DNA of 12,185 nt, from the IMG/VR virus record IMGVR_UViG_2541047898_000011; one strand, written 5' to 3'. Under the pieces are notes generated by a model. The model was not told the DNA's origin, made no database searches, and was given only the letters and a program-made list of their open reading frames with translations. This document shows, in pieces, positions 5,522 through 6,579 of the stretch (positions within the stretch are counted from its first letter, which is position 1; each line of letters begins with the position of its first letter). Made by a program: the position numbers and the translations under genes. The stretch is from a virus. Lineage: Duplodnaviria; Heunggongvirae; Uroviricota; Caudoviricetes.

Positions 5522-5554
5522 CTTTTAAGCCCGTATACATAAAAGGAAAATCAA

Positions 5555-5800
5555 ATGACTTTTGATGAAAAAGAACTTGATAATGCAATTAATAAAATCA
5601 TCGTAACGTCGCTCTTTTCCTGTCTCAGCGACACTCAGCAGAAACAGTTCTACGAATCGGCTTTCAACATGATCGAGCGTTGTTGTTTCTGCGATGCCGA
5701 CGAGTTACCTGAAAAAATCAGGAAACAGTTGGCTGATGCTCTTCGAGTGCGACTTTCTGACCAATTTTCTGAAATGTGCTCTCCGAATTTGGACAAATAG
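5555..5800 (+). CDS. Small cysteine-containing protein, cassette 1 cargo, antisense to the early operon
   Basis: 81 aa; ATG with AGGAAA upstream; preceded by repeat A; followed by a hairpin at about 5812-5837. Confidence 0.4.
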   Translation: MTFDEKELDNAINKIIVTSLFSCLSDTQQKQFYESAFNMIERCCFCDADELPEKIRKQLADALRVRLSDQFSEMCSPNLDK

Positions 5801-5993
5801 AAAAAGGCCATTTCCATTCAGGGTCTGATGGAAATACTTCAGCCTGTTCCAAAGCACGGCGTAAAGAGAACACAACTCCAGCCATAATCTGATGTTTCCC
5901 ATTGGTCCAGCTATCGCCGCTCTGATCTACAGGGGCGGCTATGTCGTATGACCAAACGACTTCACAGTTATTGTTTAAAATCTGGACTTTCAT
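5718..5993 (-). CDS. Hypothetical ORF starting inside repeat B copy 1 (MKVQILNNNCEVVW...)
   Basis: 91 aa; the nearest GGAGG is 12 nt from the ATG (poor spacing); overlaps the 3' end of the plus-strand gene by 83 bp; a minus-strand hairpin plus T-run lies inside it. Confidence 0.2.
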   Translation of the reverse strand: MKVQILNNNCEVVWSYDIAAPVDQSGDSWTNGKHQIMAGVVFSLRRALEQAEVFPSDPEWKWPFSICPNSESTFQKIGQKVALEEHQPTVS

Positions 5994-6014
5994 TTTGTTC
6001 TTTAACCTCCAGAT
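5952..6014. repeat. Repeat B copy 1 (about 63 bp direct repeat, identical to 6580-6642)
   Basis: Exact direct repeat; on the minus strand it carries the last codons and stop of an upstream ORF, GGAGG, and ATG plus 14 codons. Confidence 0.85.
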
Positions 6015-6085
6015 ACGGGCGTTTAATTGCCCCGCCGAACAGCTCTTTTCCGCAATAGCTGCAATGTCTTTCGCGCATCAGCCTG

Positions 6086-6176
6086 CGCATTCACCACAAC
6101 GCTAAGGATTCTCTCTGGTTGAAAATACTTAGCTGTTATGTGCCTGTCTTTTCACCACTTCAGGCTCGGTGGTATC
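6086..6176. repeat. Repeat A copy 2
   Basis: Identical to 5431-5521; immediately upstream of the second small plus-strand ORF. Confidence 0.85.
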
Positions 6177-6210
6177 TTGGTGTTTTCATATAGCCAAGAA
6201 GGAAATAGTT

Positions 6211-6402
6211 ATGACCAAAGAAGAAAAAATTCTTTATTTATTCCAACTATCGGTTAAGACTCACACTGCATATCAGACTGCTGCCATGACATCAGATAAA
6301 AATTACAGTACGTCAGAAAACCCGATAGACGACATAAGCAAGCTTTACGATAAGTTCGAAGCACTACTCGATAAAAAGTTTGCTGAGGCTGGGCTTGAGT
6401 GA
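6211..6402 (+). CDS. Small protein, cassette 2 cargo, antisense to the early operon
   Basis: 63 aa (MTKEEKILYLF...); SD AGAAGGAAA upstream; N-terminus resembles the cassette 1 protein (MTFDEKEL vs MTKEEKIL). Confidence 0.4.
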   Translation: MTKEEKILYLFQLSVKTHTAYQTAAMTSDKNYSTSENPIDDISKLYDKFEALLDKKFAEAGLE

Positions 6403-6570
6403 TTGTTGAATAATCGACAAAACCCAACTTAAATTTTCGTCAGTGGGCTCGATGCCATGTGCGGTGAGCTCACTTTTCAAAACTCCAAGCAATTCAGAGC
6501 TGATTTTCAATATATCTGCTTGATTTCTAACTATTCCCACTTTTTCCTCCCTTGGTCTACGCGCGGTCAT
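6364..6570 (-). CDS. Hypothetical small protein, cassette 2
   Basis: 68 aa from ATG 6570; alternative GTG start at 6540 with GGGAGG at 6 nt (59 aa); overlaps the plus-strand gene by 39 bp; preceded in-frame by a 15-codon peptide from repeat B. Confidence 0.3.
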   Translation of the reverse strand: MTARRPREEKVGIVRNQADILKISSELLGVLKSELTAHGIEPTDENLSWVLSIIQQSLKPSLSKLFIE

Positions 6571-6579
6571 GTTTTACGC

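Follow-up and report, generated by a model that had tools for sequence, protein, structure and literature searches.

Two convergent gene pairs and their upstream sequences

We analyzed two small plus-strand genes that run against the leftward early operon of a lambdoid prophage in the virus record IMGVR_UViG_2541047898_000011 (Caudoviricetes). The window, that is the whole stretch of DNA analyzed, comprises 12,185 nucleotides (nt) and contains the immunity and early region of the prophage. The two open reading frames (ORFs), of 81 and 63 amino acids (aa), were confirmed in the ORF list, and both are preceded by a good Shine-Dalgarno (SD) sequence, AAGGA, located 8–9 nt upstream of the ATG. Upstream of each lies a copy of a 91-nt direct repeat (repeat A). 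Its two copies are 100% identical, far beyond chance, and the ATGs follow 34 and 35 nt past their ends. Each small gene converges on a minus-strand ORF, of 91 and 68 aa, respectively, and overlaps its 3' end by 83 bp (5718–5800) and 39 bp (6364–6402). The neighboring early-left genes are all located on the minus strand, downstream of a PL-like promoter. A previous sequence-only reading of the window had described the small ORFs, the repeat, the overlaps and the orientation opposite to the operon, and its coordinates were found to be exact. The 81/91-aa and 63/68-aa pairs are referred to below as cassettes 1 and 2; the features of the two cassettes are the following.

5431–5521, repeat A copy 1, composite: the left ~45 nt lie in an STnc100-like element, and 5487–5517 is the sas-type core
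5487–5517, minus strand, core copy 1 (GCCTGTCTTTTCACCACTTCAGGCTCGGTGG when read on the plus strand), homologous to the 3' domain of sas RNA in P22
5520–5547, hairpin of cassette 1 (TCCTTTTA-N12-TAAAAGGA), whose 3' arm contains the SD of the 81-aa gene
5555–5800, plus strand, 81-aa gene, rightward cargo of cassette 1 (ORF list and diverged homologues)
5718–5993, minus strand, 91-aa early-operon gene, convergent partner (PGAP annotation and relatives)
6086–6176, repeat A copy 2, with its left part severed from the rest of the STnc100-like element
6142–6172, minus strand, core copy 2 (same evidence as copy 1)
6175–6199, hairpin of cassette 2 (TCTTGGT-N11-GCCAAGA), directly before the SD of the 63-aa gene
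6211–6402, plus strand, 63-aa gene, rightward cargo of cassette 2 (ORF list and homologue family)
6364–6570, minus strand, 68-aa gene of the early operon, convergent partner (protein family whose C-terminus is conserved)

Conservation of the small genes and their partners

None of the four ORFs had an informative match in Pfam, NCBIfam or PADLOC, and in PHROGs they fell into families of unknown function only. The 63-aa protein belongs to a family with relatives of 31–84% identity in Klebsiella, Atlantibacter and an Edwardsiella phage. It forms 12 clusters at 64–100% identity with conservative substitutions, and the family extends to Edwardsiella phage EPP-1 (40% identity) and to a remote member in the IMG/VR locus L128 (hhalign probability 94%). 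In Klebsiella, Atlantibacter, a Logan contig and EPP-1, the homologues always lie opposite the early operon and adjoin the repressor. Relatives of the 68-aa partner show 36–79% identity and have in common the C-terminal motif ...SLKPSLSKLFIE (L010, L012, L007 and EPP-1); each of them converges on a 63-aa homologue with an overlap of 27–39 bp. The pair is thus kept at ~37–84% identity in the same place and orientation, and on these comparisons the 63-aa ORF and its 68-aa partner are genuine, co-inherited genes.

The possibility that the 81-aa ORF is spurious was prompted by frameshift alleles and by unbiased polymorphism within E. coli, where the copies of cassette 1 are all at least 98.5% identical. 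Among these copies, ~5 synonymous versus 3–4 non-synonymous events were counted in the 91-aa ORF, and 1–2 versus 3–5 events in the 81-aa ORF. This possibility was overturned by diverged homologues. The 91-aa protein has relatives of 50–83% identity, and its homologues in Salmonella (L147) and in the Logan locus L148 (61–68% identity) are paired on the opposite strand with an ORF of 76 or 81 aa that is 62–63% identical to the 81-aa protein. An exhaustive HMMER search returned five further relatives of 38–58% identity. Compared with L147 and L148 (nucleotide identity 65–68%), the 54 codons outside the overlap gave a ratio of non-synonymous to synonymous changes (pN/pS) of 0.23–0.26 in the 81-aa frame, while four of the five control frames over the same codons gave 0.86–1.59. 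The fifth control frame (-frame 1) gave 0.29–0.31, but it contains two stop codons and is not an ORF. Judged by this pattern, the 81-aa ORF and its 91-aa partner are likewise genuine, co-inherited genes. The sequence-only reading had named the absence of the small ORFs from homologous cassettes as grounds against its proposal; both were found to be conserved, together with their convergent partners. PGAP annotates one gene per overlapping pair, usually the 91-aa and the 63-aa ORFs and the 81-aa ORF in one strain only. This accounts for an annotation problem, in which PGAP alternates between the 81-aa and the 91-aa ORFs even though purifying selection acts on both.

The recurrent frameshift in the 81-aa gene, represented by the 46 sequences of cluster P0029, maps to a run of seven A residues at 5711–5717, just outside the 91-aa ORF; the run is possibly phase-variable or prone to sequencing errors. 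In E. coli strain 121 (L018), the 81-aa gene is truncated by an IS3 insertion.

Structure prediction, which the sequence-only reading had proposed, was run for both proteins. AlphaFold2 folds the 63-aa protein into a helical hairpin (pLDDT 76) that matched no PDB or BFVD entry in Foldseek, whereas the single-sequence model of the 81-aa protein shows three helices at low confidence (pLDDT 58). The N-termini of the two proteins are alike, as had been noted, in that five of eight residues are common (MTFDEKEL and MTKEEKIL). Each N-terminus is conserved within its own family and the likeness between them is superficial, and no similarity between the proteins was detected (BLASTP found nothing; hhalign E 0.14), so a common origin of the two cargo genes was rejected. 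The same applies to the 91-aa and 68-aa partners, for which BLASTP found nothing and hhalign gave an E value of 0.015 (probability 3%); a 35-column match around L..L...P.D..W is suggestive only.

A sas-type core and a covarying hairpin

Outside E. coli, conservation is limited to the right-hand part of repeat A. In other genera, GCCTGtCTTTTnaCCACnTCAGGCnnnGTGGTATCTTGG is found upstream of the 63-aa homologues with 84–97% identity, compared with 70–87% for the coding DNA. The 31-nt core is identical at 29 of 31 positions to the sequence upstream of sieB in lambda and in P22. Lambda sieB (git, 34482–35036) is convergent with N and has the core 53–85 nt upstream of its ATG, and in P22 the core lies upstream of sieB/esc. 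The sas RNA of P22 was detected by small-RNA sequencing of infected cells (PMC13397905, Table 2). The sequenced RNA is the exact reverse complement of positions 901–1027 of the P22 locus L146 and contains the core: it extends from sieB codon 2 over the leader, the annotated PsieB (P22-pbi, AF527608, 29690–29720), a hairpin (TTCTCG/CGAGAA) and the core to ~17 nt beyond, and the core forms its 3' domain. In P22, this leftward RNA overlies the start codon, leader and promoter of sieB and prevents SieB from being translated. The view that repeat A serves as a 91-bp leader did not hold, as only its right-hand ~31–35 bp are conserved and, by analogy with P22, it would lie mostly upstream of the mRNA start.

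The hairpin next to the core differs between cassettes in sequence yet stays paired, with stems such as TCTTGG/CCAAGA, TGCTGG/CCAGCA, TACTGG/CTAGTA, TCTGG/CCAGA, TCCTTTTA/TAAAAGGA, ATCCTTAAAAT/GTTTTAAGGAT and, as a compensated stem in the homologous cassette of L147, TCCTTCT/AGAAGGA. In a MAFFT alignment of 21 class I elements (defined below), both sides had changed in four of the six pairs, a covariation score that was reached by none of 500 shuffles, and pairing amounted to 91% in the proposed register versus 19–48% in slid registers. By this measure the hairpin is under structural selection. Rfam contains no family for the core/hairpin element.

The elements fall into two classes. In class I, to which both window cassettes belong, GGTGG is followed by TAT and by a hairpin that abuts or contains the SD with its 3' arm, and the ATG lies at 35–40 nt. 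In class II (lambda, P22, SfIV), the hairpin likewise comes after the core, but a -10-like box and then a repeated loop motif stand between it and the SD, and the distance to the ATG is ~57–126 nt, mostly 66–75 nt. The class II loop motif of 10–12 nt (e.g., ACCCCTACAG, TTCCACAGTCAA or TTCCCCAACAAC; IMG/VR loci L024 to L143 and lambda L144, 598–690) is present once in the hairpin loop and once in the mRNA leader, so that its copies flank the -10 box. Its sequence changes from one cargo group to the next, yet the duplication persists, suggestive of a specific loop–leader (kissing) interaction.

In class I, the only possible place for a rightward promoter would be over the core. Of 28 distinct class I sequences, 27 have TAT directly behind GGTGG, the exception being L140 with TAC, whereas class II, with its promoter after the hairpin, lacks this TAT. 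In the predicted promoter region of cassette 2, GGTGGTATCTTGG is conserved in the Klebsiella, Atlantibacter and Edwardsiella phage relatives. The following elements were predicted; for the antisense RNAs, the limits were borrowed from P22 sas, which runs from codon 2 to ~17 nt beyond the core.

5496–5523, plus strand, predicted promoter of the 81-aa gene (-35 TTCACC, 16 nt, extended -10 TGgTATCCT)
6151–6178, plus strand, predicted promoter of the 63-aa gene (-35 TTCACC, 16 nt, extended -10 TGgTATCTT)
5469–5560, minus strand, predicted sas-like antisense RNA region of cassette 1
6124–6216, minus strand, predicted sas-like antisense RNA region of cassette 2

A minus-strand promoter within the core for a downstream small RNA was also considered and was rejected because its -10 box is not conserved outside E. 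coli.

The core in front of other cargo genes

A scan of IMG/VR with the minimal pattern CCACNTCAGGCN{3,4}GTGG returned 120 stretches. At least 84 core sites in these stretches also had an upstream CCTG...YTTT that the pattern had not requested, and they are therefore considered homologues rather than chance matches. Over all loci examined, 106 elements were collected, 84 of which are followed by an SD-preceded ORF at a fixed distance. The cargo of these 84 elements comprises 53 distinct proteins in at least 27 families without mutual BLASTP similarity. Two of the 27 families are SieB (Pfam PF14163, E 2.5e-22 and 6e-30). Representatives of 10 of the 27 families were scanned, and apart from SieB none gave an informative Pfam or PADLOC match.

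The same control element thus fronts unrelated small genes in phages of Escherichia, Shigella, Salmonella, Klebsiella, Atlantibacter and Edwardsiella, and sieB/sas, hitherto treated as a peculiarity of P22 (1993), becomes general. Already known are sieB with its antisense RNA and the presence of morons in the PL operon; new are two families of small proteins whose partners are conserved along with them, the class I control region with its compact layout, and the core that fronts at least 27 cargo families. A search of the accessible literature found no account of this slot as a general hotspot. The conserved core provides a search handle for such genes in sequence data.

Proposed regulation and alternative explanations

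The two small genes lie rightward inside the leftward PL operon, flanked by the repressor/first early gene on one side and the ral/recombination genes on the other, as does sieB. By position and sequence, the region is the 'sieB slot' of an SfV/SfII-like lambdoid prophage, a variable position just downstream of PL that carries a rightward accessory gene. The resemblance to sieB/esc/sas of P22 extends to the convergence with the first early gene, the 31-nt core (29/31) with a hairpin directly after it, and the leftward strand of this region, which in P22 is the sas antisense RNA. In the literature on the P22 system (PMC12197685 and PMC7067206, citing Ranade & Poteete 1993), sas is reported to pair with the sieB mRNA and to switch translation from SieB to its inhibitor Esc, which P22 requires to escape its own SieB (PMC12197685). 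In contrast to SieB, a protein of ~190 aa with membrane segments, the window cargo consists of soluble, helical proteins of 63 and 81 aa, neither of which is a SieB-family protein (no match to Pfam PF14163). The window leaders are of class I: the ATG comes 37–38 nt after the core, the loop motif is not repeated, and the promoter is predicted to lie over the core. In P22, by contrast, PsieB follows the hairpin, and ~70 nt separate the core from the ATG. The early gene on which the cargo converges encodes a small protein specific to the cassette in the window and an N-type antiterminator in P22. Lambda sieB likewise shares the slot, the orientation and the core sequence, but it encodes a SieB-family protein behind a class II leader, and its convergent genes abut without overlap.

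By analogy with this system, we consider it rather probable that the two window genes are prophage-expressed accessory genes in the sieB slot that are shut off by the early transcript of the phage itself. In the lysogen, with PL repressed, the small genes would be transcribed rightward from a weak promoter overlapping the core, and their products would supply an accessory function, probably exclusion or abortive infection. Upon induction or infection, leftward transcription from PL would cross each cassette, collide with the weak rightward promoter and give rise to a sas-like RNA complementary to the leader, SD and ATG of the rightward gene, with the SD and ATG masked as a result, and would at the same time express the convergent partner protein. 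Expression in the lysogen, antisense shut-off from PL and a function in exclusion are what we infer from the P22 precedent. The sequence-only reading had proposed lysogen-expressed accessory functions such as superinfection exclusion; this is the best reading because genuine genes are found at the sieB position behind the same conserved sequence, although the exclusion part is positional only.

Several points weigh against this interpretation. The exclusion function is suggested by position only, and the proteins resemble neither SieB nor a known family. The predicted rightward promoter matches the consensus at 8 of 12 positions and was not called by a consensus scan. The predicted sas-like RNAs fold no better than shuffled sequences (z ~-0.3 to -0.4). 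In the core, the inverted repeats GCCTG/CAGGC and CCAC/GTGG, which interleave, are invariant, so that the core helices are uninformative on covariation and gain no support from it, and the acting strand of the core is unproven; the wobble evidence on the strand of the hairpin is split between plus (L069) and minus (L122). The left part of repeat A copy 1 overlaps the STnc100-like element, which might have its own promoter there. The core is also not strictly tied to a cargo gene: in mEp460_4F5 (L023, 2280–2700) it is present without a rightward ORF, and the slot contains only a leftward 124-aa gene with a C-terminal excisionase/AlpA-like helix-turn-helix domain. Finally, the small ORFs contain internal Met codons (M39 and M74 in the 81-aa ORF, M26 in the 63-aa ORF), and no nested Esc-type ORF was evident, with internal SD sequences not systematically searched. 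The P22 switch is therefore not simply transferable.

A broader version of this interpretation, which we regard as tentative and on balance doubtful, is that the sas core and the covarying hairpin form a general lambdoid 'socket' for any cargo gene 35–95 nt behind the core, with the cargo expressed by the prophage and silenced by the PL transcript, and that the cassettes are two-protein exclusion modules. If true, the socket would have built-in self-immunity; in the modules, the small rightward protein would be the effector and the co-evolving convergent partner its early-expressed antidote, and the at least 27 cargo families would represent a largely unexplored reservoir of anti-phage functions.

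Among the alternatives, the one that survives best, though it appears somewhat less probable still, is that each convergent pair is a toxin–antitoxin or effector–antidote system, in which a harmful or abortive protein expressed by the prophage is neutralized, to permit the phage's own lytic growth, by a partner expressed from PL. The partner would thus do the work of Esc in P22, though as a protein of its own. In favor of this, each pair is conserved jointly in several genera and retains its 3' overlap, transcription from PL reaches the partner gene early, as one of the first, and the need of P22 for Esc against its own SieB (PMC12197685) provides a precedent. However, the co-inheritance is explicable by the physical overlap alone, the partner link of the remote L128 pair is weak (hhalign probability 11%), and in other cassettes the convergent gene is merely a generic ClpX-type zinc-finger gene or, in lambda, N. 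Of the classical forms, a type II toxin–antitoxin pair was rejected since the genes are convergent and not co-transcribed and no toxin–antitoxin or defense family was matched in Pfam, NCBIfam or PADLOC. A type I system of the hok/sok kind would suit a plausible antisense layout, but its toxin would be a small hydrophobic membrane protein, whereas the two cargo proteins are hydrophilic and helical. The toxin–antitoxin pair that the sequence-only reading had listed was not borne out on the same grounds.

It seems improbable that repeat A mainly supplies promoter and 5' end for a leftward STnc100-like RNA (5252–5475) and is unrelated to the rightward ORFs, with copy 2 a dead fragment. On the minus strand, 5252–5475 matches STnc100 (RF02076) with 43.4 bits (E 8e-7), which is under the Rfam gathering threshold of 47 bits; the corresponding scores are 45.2 bits in SKA5 and 39.5 bits in SfII. 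The match starts at 5475, with its first 45 nt inside repeat A copy 1, and a terminator-like stem closes the element near 5255–5300. Repeat A folds better on the minus strand (z -3.5 versus -1.6), and AAGACA-17-TATTTT is readable there as a promoter. Yet the relatives in Klebsiella, Atlantibacter, Logan and Edwardsiella have the core beside the 63-aa gene without an STnc100 match or a conserved minus-strand -10 box. This core also stands in front of sieB in lambda and in P22, and there the leftward RNA is sas. The STnc100-like sequence is not the part common to the sieB loci. This explanation accounts for the left half of repeat A copy 1 and not for the conservation of the core across genera, and for that left half the two readings can coexist. 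The terminator-like stem is strong (CGGTACCAGC...GCTGGTACCG, then a U-run) and lies just upstream of yfdP. In several genomes, the stretch 5252–5475 carries a PGAP pseudogene label, 'frameshifted hypothetical protein'; here the program has probably mistaken an RNA element for a broken gene.

It is very improbable that the main role of the rightward transcripts is antisense regulation of the early operon, with coding secondary: 3' overlaps of 27–96 bp with the early gene are retained in relatives, but both small ORFs are under clear purifying selection at the protein level, the non-coding conservation is found on the 5' side of the rightward genes and not in the overlap, and in the characterized homologous system the regulator is the leftward RNA. 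The antisense control of the early transcript that the sequence-only reading had suggested would hence run in the reverse direction, with the RNA from the PL side controlling the rightward gene.

If the genes are indeed expressed by the prophage and silenced by the early transcript, as we favor, the slot would be a place to seek exclusion or abortive-infection functions and escape factors. Such cargo resembles morons and other prophage accessory loci in having its own promoter (predicted here), in lying opposite to the surrounding operon and in varying between similar phages, and differs from them in that a conserved cis element stays while the cargo changes and in that the cargo is accompanied by a convergent partner. 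The fixed position, the conserved flanks and the many unrelated cargo genes recall the antiviral hotspots of P2-like phages and P4-like satellites (PMC9122126). Those belong to another phage group and site; here SieB is the only cargo with a known defense function, the scanned cargo lacks PADLOC matches, and the conserved flank is itself part of a regulatory RNA locus. The antiterminator RNA put of HK022 was considered since the element resembles two adjacent structures in a PL transcript. It was ruled out, as there is no similarity to the HK022 early region and the element lies 0.8–1.5 kb downstream of PL, whereas put sits directly after PL (PMC9378689).

Tandem arrangement and neighboring features

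The region is a tandem of two alternative cassettes bounded by repeat A and by a second repeat (repeat B), which the sequence-only reading had overlooked and whose copies are 93% identical.

5935–6014, minus strand, repeat B copy 1, where the 91-aa ORF has its SD and opening codons; recombination flank on the right
6015–6085, minus strand, junction segment of 71 nt, remnant N-terminus of a second ClpX-type zinc-finger gene
6563–6642, minus strand, repeat B copy 2, with the same start truncated to a 15-codon ORF (MKVQILNNNCEVVWA*) and the end of the zinc-finger gene

Cassette 1 is of the SfV type and cassette 2 of the SfII type: phage SfV contains cassette 1 only and phage SfII cassette 2 only, with flanks common to both (repeat A followed by the STnc100-like region on the left, and a B-like sequence on the right). 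Most E. coli prophages of this type carry the 81/91 cassette alone, directly after the zinc-finger gene. Of 5426 complete E. coli genomes, 503 contain cassette 1 (identity at least 98.5%) and just 9 the tandem arrangement, for example those of strains CX21 and 1332KP. The 71-nt segment also adjoins the left end of repeat A in mEp460 and in Stx2a-converting phages and marks a recombination junction; a 40-aa ORF (MRRLMRERHCSYCGKELFGG..., 6015–6090, minus strand) represents the remnant N-terminus of the zinc-finger gene fused to repeat B. The two cassettes were joined by a recent recombination between phages at the flanks A and B, and the 100% identity of the repeat A copies is due to this recent joining and not to selection on a 91-nt leader.

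The surrounding part of the window contains the following genes.

6630–6851, minus strand, ClpX-type zinc-finger ORF of the leftward early operon, with the yfdP/yfdQ/yfdR homologues and the exonuclease then following in the operon
7118–7810, minus strand, LexA-type cI gene
from 7908, plus strand, cro, with ymfL-, O- and RusA-like genes further right

The PL-like promoter is readable on the minus strand at ~7010–7045 together with cI-type operator repeats. Between the cI stop codon and this putative PL, a terminator-like hairpin (GGCCACC-GAAA-GGTGGC followed by a T-run; 7071–7098, minus strand) probably insulates the early-left operon from PRM-cI transcription. Within the O-like replication gene (9057–9998), an Rfam match to 'mir-5880' at 9358–9432 (plus strand) is spurious because it reflects short inverted and direct repeats (TCTGAC...GTCAAAAT units). 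These repeats code for the PSKSDASKSD repeats of the O-like protein and most likely represent a replication origin with iterons.

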